Shown here: piece by piece, positions 1 through 63,199 of the stretch
Layout: every line of letters begins with the position of its first letter
Position numbering within the stretch: position 1 is the first letter of the stretch
Origin: Octopus vulgaris
Lineage: Eukaryota
Direction of reading: 5' to 3'
DNA: 64,000 nucleotides
Assembly (NCBI GenBank): GCA_951406725.2
Contig: OX597833.1
Coordinates: 40,424,001-40,488,000, forward strand
The notes under the pieces: model-generated
Seen by the model: the letters and a program-made list of their open reading frames with translations, nothing else
Database searches by the model: none
Told to the model about the DNA's origin: nothing
Program-made: the position numbers and the translations under genes

Positions 1-196
1 CCTGGAGCCATGTGCTTATCAAATGAACTTGTCAACAATAAAGGTCACGGATATGAGTTGCAAAACAAAATTAGATATTATTTTGAAAATAATTCATATG
101 AAGAATTATAATCTATTTTTGAAACACCTCATATGTTATTGATATTTAGCTACATGGCTGCCCTTATCAAACAGATATGTGATCATTGGTATTCTA

Positions 197-1548
197 CAAG
201 GGTCAGCTGAAAAGTTCTTAGACTGACCAAGATACTCTTATGGAATGTGATCAAATGAGGTTTATTTTTCAACGTAGTCCTCTTTGCAGTCCACACACTT
301 TTTCCATCAGTGTTGCAGTGCTTGGATCCCATTGGTGAAGAAACGTTATCAACAACAGACATGATGTCATCATCACAGCAATACTGGTTCCAAGCCAAGT
401 ATGTTTTCATGTCGGGGAATAGATGATAGTCAGATGGTGCCAAATCAGAATATGGAGGGTATTCAACTAGTTCGAAGCTACAATCACACACAGCAACCAT
501 TGAAGCCAAGGACTTGTGTGCTGGAGCATTGTCCTGATGAAACAAGACCCCACCCCTTTGTCGGTTTTCCTAGGTGTTTGATCTTGATCGCCTTTCATAA
601 CTGCCTCAACAATTTGACACAGAACTTTCCATTGATGGTATGGCTCTTTTGAAGATAGTCAATAAACACAATGCCTTTTGCATCGTGTTTATACAATAGG
701 ACAAAATTTATATTAATTAATCTCAACCGTAGCAAGGCTCTATAACCTCACTACCTCCTCTTGGTCCAAAAAACAAAACAAAAAACTGAGGCCATCACCT
801 TCCCTGCAGATGAAATGATCTTGACTTCCTTTAGGATAGGCGAGGAGGGGTGTTTCCACTGCATGGACTGTCTCTTTGTCTCTGGTTCAATGTGACGAAA
901 CCAATGCTCATCCTGGGTTAGGAAACGTTCAAGGAAAGCAGCTGAATCTGCATCAACAATGTCAGATGTGATCAGCCTGATGTGCTTTTGATCAGGTGTC
1001 AGAAGACATGGCACCCACCAAGCAGAAACCTTCATCATGAGAAGTTGATTGTGCAAAATATTCTCAAATCTCTCATGGGATATGCTAATAGCATTAGTTA
1101 TTTGATTTATTGTCAATCACCTGTAATCCATTGCCATGTGATGAATTGATGAATGTTTTCCTTGGTGGTGTCAGTTGCAGGACATCCAGATGTTCGGTCA
1201 TCTTCAAAACTCTCACTTCCCCCCCTAATTTCAGCTGCCCACGTTCGCATTGTTGATAAAGCTGGAGTGTCATCCCCTAATGTAGGAACTATGTCAGAAT
1301 GAATGTCCTTGGCAGGGCTAAACCCTTTTTCTGCAGGTACTTGATAAGACAATGATACCAAATTTTGTCCATTTAAAGAGAAGTTGCAATCAGTTACTTT
1401 TGAAGTCTTCTTTGAACAGTCAGATGTCAGTTTGCTTGGAAAGCAATAATGCAGTTATTGATAAGAAGTGTTGACACTAATGTATGCAAGATTTCACAGC
1501 TCTAGCACCACTCCATTGTCAGCCTATGAACTTTTCAGCCCACTCTCG
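197..1548 (-). mobile_element. Near full-length degenerate mariner transposon
   Basis: About 30-bp imperfect TIRs with TA at both ends; frameshifted transposase pieces with WVP, QDEHW..HIEPETKRQS, HQDNAPAH and YSDLAPSDYHLF motifs. Confidence 0.92.
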
Positions 1549-9686: not shown

Positions 9687-9806
9687 ATGATGGCTAGTGC
9701 AGAACAAACACCACCTAGCAGGCACGAGAAAAGTCTCGGTCTTCTTACCTCGAAGTTTGTGTCTCTGTTGCAAGACACTGAAGATGGAGTACTTGACCTA
9801 AGAGTG
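9687..9806 (+). CDS. E2F4/5: E2F4/5-like paralog A, coding exon 1 ([40 protein letters not shown])
   Basis: Hand translation gives the start of the E2F winged-helix DNA-binding domain ([17 protein letters not shown]...DGVLDL); 120 nt, followed by a GTAAGT donor at 9807, phase 0. Confidence 0.95.
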
Positions 9807-28492: not shown

Positions 28493-29089
28493 ATTGTTTA
28501 TTTTTAGAATGACATTGTAGGGTTGGTGTGAGAGGCCAGTTTTGATCAGTTTGAGCATAAAACAGAATATTTTGGCCAGATATGGCTGGTTTAAATGCTA
28601 AAGGGTTTGATGTAAATTAAAACTTTCCAATAAAATTTCATGTTAATAACCATTTGATGTTTAAAAAATCCTTTTGATCAATGTTGTTTTAGCCATGGCC
28701 ATTTTTTTAAAGTTTTTTTTTTAAGATTTCATGTGTCTAATGAGGGTAGGGTATAATTTGAGGGAGATTTGACTGATTTCTAGCAGGTTAAGCAACAACA
28801 TAGACCCCCATATTGCTAGATATGAAGTATTTAACACTGTTGTTGTTTAACCCCCGAAGTCAATAGATCTCTGAAGTGCATTCCAGCTATAATCTCATTA
28901 TCCAACGTATTATTTCCTTAGACGGTGGGGATGTGATTTGAGAGAGATGTGGCTGCTATTTTAACCATGTAGAAGCACCTTCATGTAATTGTGGTAAGAT
29001 TCGTGGTGATGGAGAAGGTGAGATGGGAGGTAAGACCCTGAATGTTGCTAAAGATTTTTTTAACCCTTCTCTCTTAATTTCTGTTACAG

Positions 29090-29199
29090 GCTGCAGACAC
29101 ATTGGCTGTACGACAGAAACGACGGATATACGACATCACAAATGTTTTAGAAGGAATCGGGTTAATAGAAAAGAAATCAAAAAACAGTATCCAATGGAA
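29090..29199 (+). CDS. E2F4/5: E2F4/5-like paralog A, coding exon 2 ([37 protein letters not shown])
   Basis: Contains the [16 protein letters not shown] signature; pyrimidine tract plus TTACAG acceptor, GTAAGT donor at 29200; frame continuous with exon 1. Confidence 0.97.
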
Positions 29200-29569
29200 G
29201 TAAGTTTCTTTTTTTTGCTTTTAAATAAATATGGTATATGCAGGTGTGGCCGTGTCGATAAGAAGCTTGCTCCATAAACATATTCTTTCTGGTTCAGTTC
29301 CTTGGGTGTCTTCTAATGCCCTGGGCCAACCAAAGCCTTGTGAGTGGATTTGGTGGACAGAAACTGAAAGAAGCCCGTTGTATATATATTTGTGTGTGTG
29401 TATAAATTTTCTGTATCATTTGTACTCAGTGTAAGTCAGACTTATTGATATAAATATCTATATTTTAATACACCTGAAAATTTCTACCCTTTGCTTTCCC
29501 TTGTTTTGCATATATACATATATACATATTTTGTATTTGATGAATTTAATATATTTAATGTGTGTAATT

Positions 29570-31151: not shown

Positions 31152-31309
31152 AGGAGCAGGTCCAGGCTGCACTTCCAAGGAAATATCCAATCGGCTTTCA
31201 ATTTTAAAGAACGAAACTTCCAGGTTGGACCAGCAGGAGAAGGCCCTCGACTCTCATAAGAGCTGTATACAACAAAGTATTAAAAATATCACTGAAGAAG
31301 CATCCAACA
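31152..31309 (+). CDS. E2F4/5: E2F4/5-like paralog A, coding exon 3 (GAGPGCTSKEISNRLSILKNE...CIQQSIKNITEEASN), DP-dimerisation coiled coil
   Basis: CTTTCTCAG acceptor; GAGPGC and QQSIKNITE motifs typical of E2F4/5; the 3' end is 31309 (GTAAAT donor) or 31313 (ATATCA U12-like donor). Confidence 0.9.
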
Positions 31310-32656
31310 GTAAATATCATTTTTTTGTTTTTGTTTTGTTTGGTAATCTGATGGACATGTTATTGTTTTGTGTGGTGGGTGTTTGTGGATTGGATTGTTT
31401 TGATTGTTGGATACCATAGAGAAAAAGGCATTGAGCACTTGGTGATAACAGGGAAACGAAAAGAAAGAAGCTGCTAAGAAAGAGAGAGAAGATATGCAAT
31501 GGCTTTACCAGCTGGAATCAGAGAGACTAGCTCAATAACATGGGCTGATTGCATGTGTGATAAGAGAGAAGGAGCTCCATGGTTGCTGATTGGCTGTAGG
31601 CATGGCACAGAAAAAATTGTGTTTATAATAGTGATGAGGTGTGAGAAGGACAGAGGTGATTACTGCATTGCCTCAAATCAGCCCTGATTAAGAAAATCCA
31701 GTCAAAGGTGTTTCAGTTTTGACTATCCCATTTTTTTTGTATTTTCAAGATTACTTTATCCAACATGTTCTTTTTCTTTTTTTTTCTTTTTTCAAGATGG
31801 TAAAGTGTTTTGTGAAGCAGTTTTGGTCAAATAATCATAGATTCCCTCAGTGATTTGTGTATATATGTATGTTTATACAGTAGCTACAATATAGTAATCA
31901 TCATCATCATCATCATCCAGTGTTTTAAATCTAGGTTTTGTTCCTGTTAACAGGGATGGCTGGATCTACCTCAATGCCATAGCAACTGAGGTAGGTAGGT
32001 GCAACCCACCCCAAACTTTGGGCTGGCTGGTGCCCATTCTCCTTTGCTATCATGAGGCTTTCTTAGAGCTGGATTTTCTTCAGGGAGCATGCCCTTGCTT
32101 ACCCCCAACCTCAGTATCTAGACTTGAGTGGTCCCGAGACTGAGGCCTCTACCACGATTTTTAAAGAATGTGGTGGTAAACTAGCTCAGGAAGGTAGGGA
32201 TGCTACTCCCTGAGACCCCTTTCAGAGCTCCCCTCCCTACCTATAATGAATGTGAGAAAAACTGCTTTATGGTACTGGAAGCATCTACTCCAGGCAAATT
32301 GTAGCATCCCAATGCTTTCCACTTACTCAGCCTGTGCTGAGCCTTGAACTATCAAATGGACTGACTGAGTCACCAACAATGAAGTCTTGCTTGATTCATG
32401 CCCCGACACCAAGCCTTCTCATCTTACTTTGATAATGATGCCTTTGGTAGTTGGGCCACATATGCTGCATGTTAGATGAGAGGATCATAAAGACTTGCTG
32501 TACAAGTAACTGACCTCCAGTAAGAGAACATAAAGACAACTGCCATCTTCATTTCAAAAACGACAACAGACACGTGTCCTCTCTATATGAACATTGAAAG
32601 GTGGGAAGACATTGTTAGTGATCTTGTTGTAGACTGGAACTAAACAAGGGTTTAAC

Positions 32657-32876
32657 CCTTTAGTGTTCAGATTATTCTGCCAAATGTAATACTTATTAAT
32701 TCATATTGTTTTTAACTAATCAAGCATTATCTTGTCACTTCAAGATTTTGATAATGTGGTCATTTATTTTTAGAATGACATTATAGAGTAAATGGGGGAG
32801 GCCAGATCTGTCCAGTTTAAACATAAAACAGATGGAATAATTTGGCCAGATTATGGCTGGTTCAAATGCTAAAGGG
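32657..32876. mobile_element. ~220-bp TTAA-flanked (piggyBac-type) MITE family
   Basis: TTAACCCTTTAG ... CTAAAGGGTTAA; copies near 20072, 21268, 28386, 30873 and 60541. Confidence 0.8.
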
Positions 32877-32942
32877 TTAAAAACAAGAAGAGAAGCCAAA
32901 GCTTGCCAAACAAAACCAGGAAAATAGCACCAGGACAATACT

Positions 32943-33170
32943 TATTTCTTTATTGCCCACAAGGAGCTAAACATAGAGGGGACAAACAAGGACAGACAAA
33001 GGGATTAAGTCGATTATATTGACCCCAGTACGCAACTGGTGCTTAATTTATCGACCCTGAAAGGATGAAAGGCAAAGTCGACCTTGGCGGAATTTGAACT
33101 CAGAACGTAACAGCAGACGAAATCCCACTAAGCATTTCGCCCGGCGTGCTAACATTTCTACCAGCTTGCT
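32943..33170 (-). mobile_element. SINE family A, monomer
   Basis: 16-bp TSD GCACCAGGACAATACT (32927-32942 / 33171-33186). Confidence 0.88.
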
Positions 33171-34081
33171 GCACCAGGACAATACTGGTTGGCAATACCT
33201 TCGAAAGCAGTCACTGCAACTGGAACTCTCATTTACATGTGGGTCTCTGCAGTCACAACAGACACTGTTTTACCACAAAGACAGGTCTATAGCAGGTCTT
33301 TCTATGCACAAACTCATGGTGTTGTGAAATAACTCTTTATTTTTGACAAACTGGAATATACTAATATCCTTGATTGGGGATATTTCTTCACTTTTACATT
33401 TTTCTGACTTCTCTCACTCTGATGATGGAATACTTAGCTCATATGGAATCCTTACTCAATATCACAATCCACTTGCTTGACTATTCTAGAAACAACTGGA
33501 AGAAACTTTCTATGTTCATATTTTCTCTCTAAATTAAATGGGGTTTTTTTTCAAGTGATGCCATATGCTTTGTGTTTTCACTTTTATTTCAATACAGTGT
33601 GTGTGTATGTTAATATTCCATGTCTTCACTTGGCAGCATTTGAGCAAAGAAAAAATGTACTGTTACGCTTTTGACTTGTAATGACGAGAAATAATTTTTA
33701 AAAAATCCTTTACTTGACAAACCGCTGGGAGTTGATGATAGGAAGAGCACCCAGCCATGAAATACTACTAAATATTCATGCGTAACTGGTACTTAATTTA
33801 TCGACCCTGAAAGGATGAAAAGCAAAGTTGACCTCAGCGGAATTTGAACTCAGAACGTAACGGCAGACGAAATACGGGTACACATTTCGCCTGGCGTTCT
33901 AACGTTTCTGCCAGCTCACCGCCTTCTTTATGTTATGTATGATGAAATAAGTGCCAGTTATGCACTGGTGTTGATGTAATTGACTAACCCCGTCTCTCAA
34001 AGTTTCAGGCCTTTTGCCTATAGCAGAAAGGCTTATTATTTAAAATATTAAAGCAAACTCTACTTCAATGTTCTTTTACAG

Positions 34082-34197
34082 ATACCAAGATGGCCTATGT
34101 AAGTTATGAAGATGTTTGTAGTGTTTTTCCTGGGAGTATCTTGTTATCTGTACAGGCACCATCAGGGACACAACTTGGAGTACCACTACCAGAAATA
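34082..34197 (+). CDS. E2F4/5: E2F4/5-like paralog A, coding exon 4 (TKMAYVSYEDVCSVFPGSILLSVQAPSGTQLGVPLPEI), marked box
   Basis: AYV..ED.C..F...LL.V.APSGT.L.VP marked-box motif; TTTTACAG acceptor, GTAAGT donor at 34198; the 5' boundary could alternatively be 34086. Confidence 0.9.
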
Positions 34198-37973: not shown

Positions 37974-38198
37974 GGCCCAGGTGTCTTAAGGAAGTACCAA
38001 ATCCATTTGAAGAGTACATCTGGTCCCATCAATGTAATGCTGGTGAATAAAGATACAGACACTTCAATTCCTGAAGTTGTCCAAGTTCCACCATACCATG
38101 ATGATAAGAAGATGGAGATATCCCAGAAACAGATGTTGATACCTGCTGTCAACAGTGTGAAGTCTCCCTTAAAGACTCCACACAAACAGCTAAGAAAG
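37974..38198 (+). CDS. E2F4/5: E2F4/5-like paralog A, coding exon 5 (GPGVLRKYQIHLKSTSGPINVMLVNKD...SPLKTPHKQLRK)
   Basis: KYQIHLKS.SGPI.V.LVNK motif; poly-T plus AG acceptor; AAG|GTATAT donor; 225 nt, phase 0-0. Confidence 0.9.
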
Positions 38199-38504
38199 GT
38201 ATATCTTTGCGTTTTAAGAAATTTAGAAAAGCTTTTAGACTTTGTGCACATTCATAGGTATAGGAGTGGCTGTGTGGTAAGTAGCTTGCTTACCAATCAC
38301 ATGGTTCTGGGTTCGGTTTCACTGTAAGTGGAACCCCCTCCTTTTTTGATAACAAACACTCCAGTTCAATTAATAAATTTTTTTTATTCCTTTTGTGTGA
38401 GTATTCCACTGGCACTTGTGCCTGTAACTTATTTTTCAGACAGAATCTGTGCAACACTGTTGTGGGACAAGGTGACCATTTGAATTACATTTGGTCATAG
38501 ACAT

Positions 38505-38841
38505 CTATCTATCCGCTCAGTCGAAGTCGACTCTCGGTTACTCGATGGATCAGTGTCCTCCAGTCAGTTCTATCCTGGGCTGCTTCTTTCAGATTGGCTC
38601 TGTCCATTCCGGTATCACTCTTGATGGTGTCAAGCCAGCGGGTTCTTGGTCGGCCTCTTCCTCTCTTAGCCCGGGGGTCCCACTGTTTGGTACCATCATA
38701 TTAGAATTCTTACACTTTTGATCCATAGAGTATATTGGCCAGGTCTTTCCCCAGGCCAGAGCTGTTTAGCCAGCATACTTACCATATGCCGTTGCCAACC
38801 CCAGCACCACGGTGAGGAGAATGGTTGGGCTTTGGAAGAGG
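38505..38841 (-). mobile_element. Short bipartite non-autonomous RTE derivative
   Basis: The minus strand ends in KRGRGRPRTRWLDTIKSDTG...LKEAAQDRTDWRTLIHRVTESRLRLSG* plus (ATAG)n; imperfect 12-bp TSD GGTCATAGACAT / GTTCTTAGACAT. Confidence 0.82.
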
Positions 38842-39210
38842 GTTCTTAGACATATTAATACATATATACATGCAGACCTGCATACACACACTCTTTACAT
38901 GGCACCAGCACAGATTTTATAGACTAATCCTCTTCATCAGGGAGAGCAGCATAAATACTTACACTGTGGTGGATGGGTTTTCTTAAGTACAGCAAGATAC
39001 CAGATCCTTGGCCTTTGTCACCTCTAAGGTTCAGTGCCCTGAGATCAACCTTTGTCCCATGTCTTCCTGGGTCTCCTCACACAAGTAGAAGGAATGAAAT
39101 AAGTAAATAAATAAATGTCTAAATAAAACCTACTAATTGGAAATAGAATCATGTGATGTCATTATAATTAACTTTTTTTTTCTTGTCCTCACCCTCCTAT
39201 TATTTTTCAG

Positions 39211-39304
39211 AAATCTCCTCTGAAAACACCTCTTTCACCTGTGAACCGAATGACCACACGATCATCACCACGCAAAATGTCTCAACCCTATACGAATATA
39301 TTAC
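39211..39304 (+). CDS. E2F4/5: E2F4/5-like paralog A, coding exon 6 (KSPLKTPLSPVNRMTTRSSPRKMSQPYTNIL)
   Basis: TATTTTTCAG acceptor, C|GTATGT donor, open in the required frame and phase-compatible with its neighbours; low-conservation region. Confidence 0.72.
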
Positions 39305-40258
39305 GTATGTTATCTTTGAGTTTTTTACTCTTTCTGCTTGTCTGTCTTTTCATTTCTCTTTTTCACCCTCTCTCTCTTTTTATCTGCTTTCCTTTCTCCC
39401 TCTCTCCTCTTCATCTTTCTGTTCTCTCTCTTTCTCTGTCTCCTCTTTTTCATCCCTTTTTCTCTCCCTCCCATTTTCACCATTTCTTTTGCCTTATTCT
39501 CCCTCTTTGTCCTTCCTGTCCTCTAATTTTTTTTTCTCCTTCTCCAAAAATATTTCTGTAACAAATAAGCAATCTAGCCTATCCTATCTGCTTCAGCCAG
39601 CAAGCATGTCAGTTCGTAATAATATATATATAAGTGATAATTTCAGTTAATCATTAAATATTTTTAACACATGCACATAGCATAAACTTTTTAAAATCAA
39701 AATCACTACTGCACTAATACTTAGTTTTTCTATAATGCATTGCCAGAATTTGAAATGGATTCAGAATGTAAATATATATATATATATATATATATATAGG
39801 TGCAAGAGTGGCTGTGTGGTAAGTAGCTTGCTTACCAACCACATGGTACCAGGGTCAGTCCCACTGCATGGAGCCTTGAGCAAATGTCTTCCATAGCCTC
39901 AGGCCGACCAAAGCCTTGTAAATGGATTTGGTAGATGGAAACTGAAAGAAGCCTGTCATATACATATATATATATATATATATACACACATACATACATA
40001 TATTTGTGTCTATGTTTGTCCCCCCCACCATCGCTTGACAACTAATGTTGGTGTACTTACATCTCAGTAACTTAGCAGTTTGGCAAAACAGACCAATTGA
40101 ATAAGTACTTGGCTTACAAAGTATAAGTCCTGGGGTTGATTTGTTCGACTAAAGATGGTGTTCCAGCATGACTGGAACAAATAAAAGAATATCTTTTACA
40201 TGATGATTGTTTTAGGAAATTGATTCTTCACAAAACCATGATTTTCTTTATTTTGCAG

Positions 40259-40345
40259 CTCATACCAACAATCAATTCACCAGTTCCAACATTACTGATA
40301 ATCTCACAAATGATCTACTTTTCAACAGTACAAAACCTTCATTTA
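40259..40345 (+). CDS. E2F4/5: E2F4/5-like paralog A, coding exon 7 (PHTNNQFTSSNITDNLTNDLLFNSTKPSF)
   Basis: TTTTGCAG acceptor, GTAAGT donor, 87 nt, phase 1-1, open frame; no homology support. Confidence 0.68.
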
Positions 40346-41125
40346 GTAAGTATTGCACTTCGTGTGTTACTTTTGCTACACATTACACTTTCAGTCTTTT
40401 ACTTTTTCTGTTACACTCTCTACAGAGTTCTCACCAATATTACAGACATCCAGCCACCACAATTATTAAAGATCCCACCCATAAAACACACTTCTAACCA
40501 TGCAACCCCTACAACATTCTTGCTTCTAACAAGCAGATGTGTTAACTTCAGTGTTTTTTCTTGAACTGTTAGAAATAATAGCTAAATTTTCTTCAAGTTA
40601 CTCATGATAAAGATTGATATGGTAGATAATTATGTTGGAATTCACAATAATTGAAATCCAGACGTAGTAGTCGTGGCTTGATTTTTGGTTCAATGCCCTG
40701 AGGTCATCCTTTGTCCTATGTCTTCCTGGGTCTCTGCACACACAAGTAGAAGGAATGAAATAAGTAAATATGGTTTTGCCTGATGGAAGCTGACTTGGAA
40801 CTAAATAATTTCTTAGAAAATCTCCTATAGAGCTAAAATATTCTACCCCTTACTACATCCTTCACTAATAATGTTACACACTTGTACTGTAACATCAGCT
40901 ATGCCACTATAATGCTCCCATCTGGTGTCACATGCCACTTACTACAACACAAATATGAACCAAATACCTGCCAAAATATTGGCTTCAAATTATGGCACAA
41001 GGCTGCAATTTCAGGGAAGAGAGTCAGTCGGTTACATTAACCACAGTGGTCAACTGGTACTTATTTTATTGACCCCATAAGTATGAAAAGCGAAGATGAC
41101 TTTGGTCGAATTTGCACTTGGAAAT

Positions 41126-41257
41126 ACTAGGTTGAGGGGAAAAGTTTGTGTGCTGTGTTAAAATAATGAACTGAATGAATACACACACCATGAAAATATA
41201 TTTTAAAAAAAAAGTGTTATTTTAACATGGTGCACACACTTTTTCCTCAACCTAATA
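41126..41257. mobile_element. Small mariner-type MITE
   Basis: Imperfect ~40-bp inverted ends TAGGTTGAGG...AAAATAA / TTATTTT...CCTCAACCTA. Confidence 0.6.
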
Positions 41258-42581
41258 TTAACCAAATCATTCTCATGGAACATCCAATCTATTGTTTTTA
41301 AGAAATATACAAAAACTTGAATTAATGAAAGTGTCGAAGTTGAAATATTTTTAATTGTAGGCTTGTAGCTCTACATGATCAGGTTTAATTTGGGATTAAA
41401 CAAACACACCATTACCACTATCACACACCTTCACCACAATGTGTGTCCACTGCCGTTGCCACCACCACCACCAATACTACATGTTGCCATCCCTACATAA
41501 TTCTTATCTCATATTTCCATCTAAAGCTATTTTCACTTCTTACTTTCAGGTGGTAAAGAATTTATTGATGATCTTGGCTTCATCTCAGCTGACGGTTCGT
41601 TTGTTTCTAATTAATATTTATTTATAATTGTTGCTGATGGGTGGGTCAATGCATATCTCCTCCATTTTTATTGGGTCAGCAAATAGATGATGGGAGGGTC
41701 ACAGTCTCTTCTCTTTTTTATATAGCGGTTACAATAGAGGGTGAGTGGGTTTGTGAGTATCTCTCTAATCTCTGATTTGGTCAACAGATAAAGGCTGTAT
41801 AGGTCACACTGTCCCTTTTCCTCTGGTTAGCACATTAGATTGTGTGTAGGTCACCATGTGTCTGCTCCTCATCTCTAATTGGTCAGTATGGTAAAAGCTG
41901 GGTGGCTCACCATCCCTCTCCCTCTAAGCATGAAAGAAGATGAGTGGGTCACTGCCCTTTCTCCTTCTCTGAATGATCAATCAGATAGAGAGTGAGTAAA
42001 TCAGTGTCTTGCTCCCCTCCATCATTGTAGGAGTAGTTCCAGATTTTTTGTCCTTATGTTGTTCTGTTGCTGGTGTTTTTGTTGTTATTTTGAATTAAGC
42101 CATAGTAAACTTCACCTCTCATCCACCTGAGATTGATAGTCATTTAGTGAGTATTGATTAAAACACTACCCAAAAGTTGTAGTAAACCCTGTATTCATGT
42201 AACAAATGGGGTGGGGGAAGGTATCTTTTTTCTTCACAAATGTAAATAAACCTAATCTGTTTCTTAAACGAGGGACATATTCATATGGCACAGAATGTTT
42301 TTTTACCTCAATGGACGTCAGTGATTGGTTGAAATTGCCGAAATGCTCGAAATTAAAGATGAAATATCTTACAACATATAGAATTTTCTCAATAAACCAA
42401 GAAAAAATGATGTTTTATAAACACATTCTACCAGTATACGAAGTTTAAAACTTTTTAGTTACCTAGAAATTATGTTAAAAACTGCCGTTGAAAAGGAAAA
42501 GATCCAATGTTACAAGTTATTTTGTTGTTGCTGTTGTTCTAGTAAAGTTGCTAGTTGTAGCTGTGATGTTGTTTAGAGTTA

Positions 42582-43442
42582 CAGGGCACTCAAGCTAAAT
42601 TTGACAGCATGAAAAGAAAAGGAAGCATAATATCCCATCCAAAAATAAAAATATTTAAAAAATATCAAATAAAGCTGGGAACAATTTACTCAAAGTAGCT
42701 GTCCTCAACGTCCACCACAGTCTCAAGATGGCCCCCAAACCTGGAGCTTGCATTCTTCACTGTGTTCTTAGGAAGATATTCAAACACCTTGATTTTGGCC
42801 ACCAGCTCAACCTTGGTGTTACAGGCGGTGTGGTTGGTATCTTTCTCAACTGTGTTCCACACATAGTAATCCATGGAGTTACAATTGGGGTAATTAGAAG
42901 GCCAGGAACTTAAGGCTGGTGAAGTTATAGAAATATTCCAACAACCACATCTGACTCTTTCTGAAGGTATGGCAAGAAGGCAAATCTTGCTACCATGCTT
43001 ATGGCCTTCCAGCAGCAACCCTCTCCAGCCATGGATTAACCATAATCTCCAGCAGCTTCACATAGCTGTTTGAATTGAACCTAAGGCCCTGTTCATCGGT
43101 TGCTGGATGAATTCTAGTGTTTGTATGCAGTCAGAATGCCTGCTGTGTCCCTTTCTGCGGGCCACAGCTTTGTAGTCACCATTGCAGCTCTCCATGTCAC
43201 ATCTTACAGCCTTTACAGTGTCCATAGAGCATTGAGCAGTTGTCATGATGTCAGCATTTCATCATGGTACAATCATGATACAGGTGACTCTTTTCCAATA
43301 TGCAGACGGCTTTCAATTCTCTATGTCAGCTAACTTTTTCTCAAATACAGTTTTGAGGTTTGTGCTCTCCAATGCCTTTGACATCAAGCTGTTACTGAGA
43401 AAAAAAGTGACAAAAAAAAATTATCAAATTTAGTCCCCACTG
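42582..43442 (-). mobile_element. Deleted Tc1/mariner-superfamily element (DD37D/maT-like)
   Basis: WPSNYPNCNSMDYYVW is a decayed WPxxSPDxNPxDY motif; partial TIRs with TA ends. Confidence 0.75.
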
Positions 43443-44269
43443 TAGTTTAACAGGTGGGCTTGTAGCTGACAAAATCACTAATGTATTGTTTAACTAAAAG
43501 TTCAGTGGACCACTTTCTTCTCTCTCTTGGTATTCTGGCAGAGAAGAATATTGTTAACTAAAATATAAGCAACGAAATTTGTGTGGTTGGGTTAGCGTGT
43601 TTGATGGTTTTTGTTATTGTTGTTGGTCAGCCTCATGACAGCAGTCCTGACTGAGCAGCCCTGTGATGATCAAAATCAATTCAGCTGTGACCATCTTCTC
43701 TTTCTTTCAAACATCGTATATTTACAACTTCATTATCCAATATATTCTTTGTTTAAGATGATGTGGTGTGTTATGAGGAGAGGAATATTTGGCTGCACTT
43801 TCCAGCAGGTCAATTGACTTGAATGTTGCATTTCTATGTGGATAGGAGCAGTTCCTAATTGGTAATTTTCCTTCAAAAATTTGGCATGGATCTATGGACT
43901 CATCATAATTCTTTTATGCTGGTCTGTTAGCAAACATCCTCAATGCCATGGCCATATCGTACCATTGAAGGAGCCTCTATGCAATTACTTGATTTGCTAC
44001 AAGTAGCAGCTAAATTGTCCTCAAATCTTATCCTGTTTTCTTTTAAAAATAAAAGACACATGTAGTCCTAAGTAAACACAAAAGTTAGAATATGATAGGA
44101 ATATCCCAACAGGAATGCCTTTTGATCATAGATCTGCTACCTAGGGTCTTACCTGGGGTTGCACTACAACTAGCTGTTTTAGCAAAATTTTGAAATTGAA
44201 ATTTAAAAATCTAATCCAGATCATGAATAAAATGGGATTTTTCTCTTTTTTATTTTTTATTTTTCACAG

Positions 44270-44421
44270 GCTTGGAACCGTTGTTGCATCTAAGTCCTCC
44301 ACCTAGTGAGAGGGATTACCATTTCCATTTGGATGATAGTGAAGGCGTCTGTGATTTCTTCGATGTTCCTCTGCTACCCCCCCATGCTACTGCTGCATCT
44401 TCAGCCACACCCTTCTACTGA
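44270..44421 (+). CDS. E2F4/5: E2F4/5-like paralog A, last coding exon ([36 protein letters not shown]...PFY*), pocket-protein-binding domain
   Basis: LSPPP...DY...[12 protein letters not shown] Rb-family binding motif; TTTTCACAG acceptor; the exons sum to 1062 nt = 353 aa plus stop. Confidence 0.93.
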
Positions 44422-63079: not shown

Positions 63080-63199
63080 ATGATGGCTGCAACCGATCAC
63101 ACCACACCCAGTCGACACGAGAAGAGTCTTGGACTACTCACCACCAAATTTGTATCTTTATTACAGGAAGCCAAAGATGGAGTACTTGATTTGAAAGTG
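63080..63199 (+). CDS. E2F4/5: E2F4/5-like paralog B, coding exon 1 ([40 protein letters not shown]); gene continues beyond the window
   Basis: Same 120-nt length and phase as paralog A exon 1, GTGAGT donor at 63200, canonical E2F4/5 DNA-binding-domain sequence. Confidence 0.93.

Follow-up and report, generated by a model that had tools for sequence, protein, structure and literature searches.

Probable conversion of a minor-type to a major-type intron by shifted splice sites in one of two tandem E2F genes of Octopus vulgaris

How a minor (U12-type) intron becomes a major (U2-type) intron without a harmful intermediate is an open question. A proposed answer is that neighbouring sites are activated and the old ones then decay. 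The closest described case is an SR-protein gene in which a U12-type intron gave way to a U2-type one through a shift of splice sites, reported from Trichinella spiralis EST EX501652.1 and C. elegans EEED8.7 (Bartschat and Samuelsson 2010, PMC2846911). As in the octopus intron described here, a minor intron was replaced by a major one a few bases away, not by point change in place. That comparison spans distant species, one of them thought to be without minor introns, and involves an AT-AC ancestor, whereas in the octopus both states occur in tandem paralogues of a single genome that has minor snRNA genes, and the old donor can still be read. Conversion by shifted sites is also named in a review (PMC3584512), and the prospero and ZRSR2/dUrp twintrons have led to the proposal of a cryptic-site route (PMC3291851, PMC3564746; reviewed in PMC3584512 and PMC8329584). 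The octopus intron resembles that route, in which activation of a neighbouring site of the other class is followed by silencing of the original one. The insect paper describes full conversion in neither of its two cases (PMC3291851); in contrast to the prospero and ZRSR2 twintrons, the intron of octopus copy A looks like a finished end state, with offsets of just 4 and 7 nt and a new donor that overlaps the old one.

Class conversion in place, the Burge/Dietrich model, has examples in IAOD (PMC7367187) and among minor-like introns (PMC11347168), and conversion from minor to major is reported to start most often from the GT-AG subtype (PMC2831892). The octopus case shares the direction and the GT-AG ancestor, but conversion in place keeps position and phase, whereas copy A went from phase 2 to phase 1 and its protein gained a residue. 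E2f1-6 are listed as minor-intron genes in mouse (PMC6717393). The octopus genes belong to the same family, and the homologous position before an LAYV-type motif is found in invertebrate contigs and in two octopus paralogues; unlike the genes of the mouse listing, copy A has lost its minor-type signals. In a 3000-genome survey, sliding counts as loss and is considered very rare at most (PMC10639083); further related work is found in PMC6865273 and PMC1557818. Our literature search found no paper on the copy A intron, which may be listed in supplements or intron databases, outside the scope of that search. The octopus pair is a new and unusually clean case of the already described conversion by shifted sites, with a control in the same genome.

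The window, the whole stretch of 64,000 nucleotides of Octopus vulgaris DNA analysed here, contains a nine-exon E2F4/5-like gene (copy A, 9687-44421) and, in tandem, the first coding exon of a second copy (copy B), starting at 63080. Copy A encodes the DNA-binding (PF02319) and CC-MB (PF16421) domains and groups with mollusc E2F4/5, and its exon-3 peptide recurs without change in a protein named in both Octopus vulgaris and O. sinensis. Searches of the octopus genome (G000) with the exons gave two matches per exon, copies A and B, and a CC-MB family search of the same genome added a third E2F on contig C3. Window positions 183-1454 (minus strand) hold broken reading frames that, by motifs in the ORF list, we take to be a mariner-like transposase. 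The features of the locus are as follows.

9687..9806, plus strand: coding exon 1 of copy A (E2F4/5-like); exact match to residues 1-40 of protein P0001; PF02319.
29090..29199, plus strand: exon 2 of copy A, DNA-binding domain; 95% nucleotide identity to copy B.
31152..31309, plus strand: exon 3 of copy A, coiled coil, ending in phase 1; contig pieces in four of four runs; PF16421 positions 1-37.
31310..34081, plus strand: present-day intron 3 of copy A, 2772 nt, GT-AG, of major type by sequence; contigs join 31309^34082 with 0 gaps; P0001 and P0121 read NNTKM.
31310..31315, plus strand: used donor GTAAAT of copy A intron 3, from the sequence; U1 pairing weak, at -1.9 kcal/mol.
31314..31322, plus strand: ATATCATTT, relic of a minor-type donor, where the ancestral phase-2 site lay; GTATCCTTT (copy B) and ATATCCTTT (third E2F) occupy this position.
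34071..34079, plus strand: possible relic minor-type branch site TTCTTTTAC (weak evidence; 7/9 match), today the pyrimidine tract of the used acceptor.
34082..34088, plus strand: seven bases, now coding, that were probably intronic, judging from copy B and 13 homologous acceptors; they include the AC at 34084-85.
34082..34197, plus strand: exon 4 of copy A, marked box with MAYV; contigs; PF16421 positions 39-74.
37974..44421, plus strand: exons 5-9 of copy A (about 37974-38198, 39211-39304, 40259-40345, 41550-41594 and 44270-44421), by exact mapping of the P0001 peptide, with inner boundaries taken from the flanks rather than from RNA.
63080..63199, plus strand: coding exon 1 of copy B; the gene extends past the window, to about 40526978 of G000:C20.
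G000:C20:40514992-40515730: intron 3 of copy B, 739 nt, GTATCCTTT...TTCCTTCAC...TAG.

In a tree of 29 proteins, a clade of A copies (Octopus, Argonauta) is sister to a clade of B copies (Octopus, Argonauta) (100/98) and the cuttlefish gene falls outside both, so the duplication appears to be octopod-specific on this sampling. Of 31 four-fold sites in exons 1, 3 and 4, 18 differ between the copies. Across exon 2 and some 44 nt of the intron before it (window 29046-29205 against G000:C20:40510065-40510224), the DNA identity of the copies is 95%; given the divergence of the other three exons, gene conversion between the tandem copies is likely there. In an AlphaFold2 model of copy A, of low confidence (mean pLDDT 53.9), the residue added at the intron comes after a long helix (85-125), and residues 129-148 are below 50, too poor to judge whether the added residue is tolerated.

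An earlier note, made from the letters alone, had placed GTAAAT at 31310, ATATCATTTT at 31314, an acceptor at 34081 and an AC at 34084-85 in copy A intron 3, and all four are in the sequence. The 3' end carries TACTTCAAT at 34061-34069 and TTCTTTTACAG ending at 34081. Both pairs of sites keep the frame, as the note had translated them: 31309^34082 gives SNNTKMAYV and 31313^34086 gives SNSNKMAYV, with an intron of 2772 nt in each case. The GT-AG use that it had anticipated was found. The phase-1 junction 31309^34082 is present in four of four runs from four studies, as one unbroken record with no gaps and 0-1 other letters, in assembled contigs, which drop rare variants; three of these runs are guessed to be RNA and one is of unknown kind, and the run search included 14 runs guessed to be RNA, none on record as such. 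Positions 31311-31347 were left out of the contig comparison as a repeat, and the junction was read among the contig pieces listed; a further 97 joints and 1243 loose ends lie outside the listing, in which repeats within the intron took up the entries for joints and loose ends. Annotated proteins of three Octopus species also contain the NNTKM junction. The depth of run X7 in the donor bin was 14.4, higher than the 12.76 accounted for by the spanning contig, with the surplus coming from a record outside the listing; in the other three runs the two values agree. The used junction differs in position from 31313^34089, the equivalent of the ancestral one. Among other pairings considered for copy A, 31313^34082, 31313^34090 and 31309^34090 were rejected as out of frame, and 31313^34080 was rejected because it would give SNSKDTKM, absent from RNA contigs and proteins.

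The ancestral state of the intron can be read from its homologues. Copy B reads AGT CA/GTATCCTTT...TTCCTTCAC ACTTTTTTCTCTAG/G TTG (slashes mark the splice sites), a 739-nt phase-2 intron of minor type with GT-AG ends, and no other AG occurs within 40 nt upstream of its 3' end. In the third E2F the donor is ATATCCTTTT, with the phase of the copy B minor donor. This gene (G000:C3, loci L103/L104, minus strand) also has a branch-like TTCTTTAAT, and, judging by frame, its intron appears to close with AA, which would make it AT-AA, the most frequent of the non-canonical minor types. Genes for U11, U12 and U6atac are present in the genome, with scores over the Rfam cut-offs; 43 of 46 scored U6atac candidates exceed the cut-off and are scattered over many contigs of G000, and many of them are probably pseudogene copies. 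Among 80 metagenome loci the homologous site was found in 47, of which 26 read through it and 21 have an intron. Twenty of these introns start with GT and one (L056) is AT-AC. The 21 contigs are far from independent, since they comprise five donor types, four of them with GT, and 17 form one cluster of similar contigs. The homologous intron is of minor type in copy B, the third E2F, L056, L061, L079 and the 17-contig cluster. All 13 homologous acceptors that were found, together with that of copy B, lie one base before an L/M/C/A codon; the ancestral boundary in copy A is therefore 34088, not 34085, so that, in all, the donor moved by -4 and the acceptor by -7, and one codon was gained.

Protein spacing points to the same ancestor. 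The distance from QSIxN to the LAYV-type motif is nine residues in 121 of 126 proteins; ten are counted in two A-copy proteins of Octopus, in the Argonauta A protein and in one cuttlefish isoform out of two, and eleven in one fish entry. Because most proteins share the spacing of copy B, and given the tree, it is copy A that changed, not B. Codons suggest an AG end at the old boundary as well: the cuttlefish +1 isoform and Argonauta A both have Arg in front of L/M, and Thr would be expected there had the intron ended in AC. For the cuttlefish gene, NCQL and NCQRL forms are both annotated on one contig (P0003 and P0122), which fits a tandem acceptor at a minor intron. The idea that the cuttlefish +1 form records the octopus event was rejected, since NCQL is present on that contig too, and in two Logan proteins. 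Three expectations of the earlier note held in part. It had taken the E2F intron to be a conserved AT-AC intron, and both subtypes occur, with AT-AC in L056 and a GT start in copy B and 20 of the 21 homologous contigs. It had expected copy B to keep ATATCCTT...AC; the minor-type intron is kept, but with GT-AG ends (GTATCCTTT...TAG). Of the slide of 4 nt that it had proposed for both sites, the donor shift holds, while the acceptor moved by 7 nt.

The old donor in copy A is still recognizable. RTATCNTT has 42 matches on both strands of the 64 kb window (3.3e-4 per site) and follows 4 of 1400 GTNNRT sites there. The relic ATATCATTT is more than chance, since this pattern is rare and its position is preset by copy B and the homologues. 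Pairing energies with the snRNAs of this genome indicate that the relic is decayed: it scores -0.3 kcal/mol with U11 and -2.5 kcal/mol with U6atac, as +6 C>A breaks both helices, whereas the intact donors score -6.5/-6.3 (copy B) and -7.7/-7.2 kcal/mol (third E2F). Both values of the relic fall inside the range of ordinary major donors, which for U11 is +1.0 to -3.0 kcal/mol. The used donor, GTAAATAT, is without the minor consensus and is weak, with -0.2 kcal/mol for U11 and -1.9 for U1. Its U1 pairing is the weakest among nine donors tested, the eight other major donors scoring -3.2 to -9.2 kcal/mol (the copy A intron 4 donor was scored one base off). A similar GTAAAT donor is in use at copy B intron 5. 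The GT of the used donor derives from a former Ser codon, AGT, which copy B has at this place. In copy B a latent GTCAGT lies 4 nt upstream of the minor donor and pairs with U1 at -3.4 kcal/mol, better than the donor used in copy A. At window position 38199, the copy A intron 5 donor, AAG/GTATATCTTT, scores -5.2 kcal/mol with U6atac and -5.7 with U1; copy B has GTAAATAAAT, and the copy A donor is probably an ordinary major one.

Minor-type introns have the branch-site consensus TTCCTTAAC. The best branch-like 9-mer in copy A is TTCTTTTAC (34071-34079), which matches it at 7 of 9 positions and stands right before the used AG. The earlier note had missed it and named only TACTTCAAT, which is present but matches at 5 of 9. 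The branch A of TTCTTTTAC precedes 34088 by 10 nt and 34085 by 7 nt. In the homologues the distance from branch A to the 3' end is 10-15 nt, and 11-13 nt is reported as optimal for minor introns (PMC3584512). As a relic the branch site is weak, because the same 9-mer ends one of 12 other major acceptors scored (copy B intron 1; two copy B acceptors were left out) and 5 of 372 pyrimidine-rich YAG sites reach a 7/9 match. For an AT-AC minor intron at 31314-34085, neither an RTATCCTT donor pairing with U11 (+6 is A) nor a branch site about 10-15 nt before the AC was found, the candidate sites lying at 7 and 17-18 nt.

Since the GT-AG junction is present in all four runs and copy B keeps a minor-type intron, the best reading is that intron 3 of copy A very probably converted from minor to major, with shifted boundaries. 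This conversion within a duplicate is what the earlier note had proposed, although the AT-AC predecessor from which it started may have existed only as an intermediate step. It is probable, with less assurance, that an ancestral minor GT-AG intron, as in copy B, was replaced directly by latent major sites, 4 nt upstream at the donor and 7 nt upstream at the acceptor. After the octopod-specific duplication the minor-type intron was retained in copy B, where the Ser codon AGT and the GT of the minor donor itself form a latent GTNNGT major donor at -4. In copy A, the AG right behind the pyrimidine-rich minor branch site could then have served as a major acceptor at -7, which would bring the reading frame back with the -4 donor. 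With copy B as back-up, the old donor of A may have degenerated through G+1>A and C+6>A, and AG/G, the former acceptor, may have turned coding, as Arg in Argonauta and Lys in Octopus. Several observations count against this direct replacement. The relic starts with AT, not GT; the homologue L056 is AT-AC; and the new major donor, weak in itself, is further impaired by G>A at +5. Argonauta A reads NSTRM, and two substitutions are needed whether the change was direct or took two steps. The good preservation of the relic in spite of the 18 differing four-fold sites leans towards a later conversion.

A change in two steps, in which the minor acceptor of A first moved 3 nt upstream (one codon gained; AT-AC or GT-AG) and both sites later slid 4 nt upstream, perhaps only in the genus Octopus, is unlikely but deserves weight. 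The AC exactly 4 nt behind the used AG is what it predicts, and the AT at 31314 and the AC at 34084-85 form a canonical in-frame pair with an intron as long as the one used. The cuttlefish isoform NCQRL resembles a -3 acceptor, the ancestral Ser is retained in the NSTRM of Argonauta, AT-AC occurs at the same site in L056, and the relic donor is well kept despite deep divergence of A and B. However, the old boundary ends in AG in the sister copy B and, judging by codons, in cuttlefish and Argonauta A, and the best branch-like 9-mer is just 7 nt from the AC, with the alternative TACTTCAAT a poor match. This course also needs a subtype switch, which is reported to be rare (PMC3584512), with none described for insects (PMC3291851).

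The remaining readings deny a finished conversion, or any conversion. The earlier note had offered an intron usable by both spliceosomes, and a live overlapping pair, with the major junction dominant and the minor spliceosome using 31314 with 34085 or 34088 in some tissue, is improbable. Shifted twintrons exist (PMC3564746), the relic persists, both alternative junctions are in frame, run X7 has depth in the donor bin beyond that of the spanning contig, and the third E2F, if it ends in AA, would make an AT-AA intron possible in this genome. No positive evidence for dual use emerged: the relic has lost nearly all of the U11 pairing of the intact donors and its U6atac helix is broken as well. 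Contigs cross the GT-AG junction unbroken in four of four runs and, among the contig pieces listed, it is the only junction present, in a kind of record that hides rare forms. Still less credible, indeed very improbable, is that copy A lost the minor intron and gained an unrelated major intron 4 nt away, with ATATC there by chance. The intron bodies of A and B have no alignable sequence (best E 0.25), but this is expected at the divergence of the copies. Loss is reported to be commoner than conversion in metazoans (PMC2831892), and the TT of the relic could stem from the adjoining T run; yet ATC follows just 12 of 1400 GTNNRT sites in the window, and the extra codon sits exactly at the junction.

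If conversion by shifted sites is correct, copy A would be free of the minor spliceosome, and copy B and the third E2F would still depend on it. The pair shows a likely end state of the activation of neighbouring sites: the old donor can be seen, and the same genome holds a sister that has not converted. It also provides a natural control for whether the minor intron of E2F limits expression. Surveys that require introns to stand at identical positions cannot see a conversion of this kind. More tentatively, and with considerable doubt, minor GT-AG introns may hold their own escape route, in which the donor's GT would also supply positions +5/+6 of a major donor 4 nt upstream, and the pyrimidine-rich branch site the tract of a major acceptor. 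Shifted conversion might then be recurrent, scored as intron loss and released by duplication, giving E2F copies that are gated by the minor spliceosome and copies that are not. An animal E2F4/5 contig, L063:1715, in which the acceptor of the intron was not found, reads CG/GTACGGTA at the ancestral phase-2 site and may represent a minor-to-major conversion in place.
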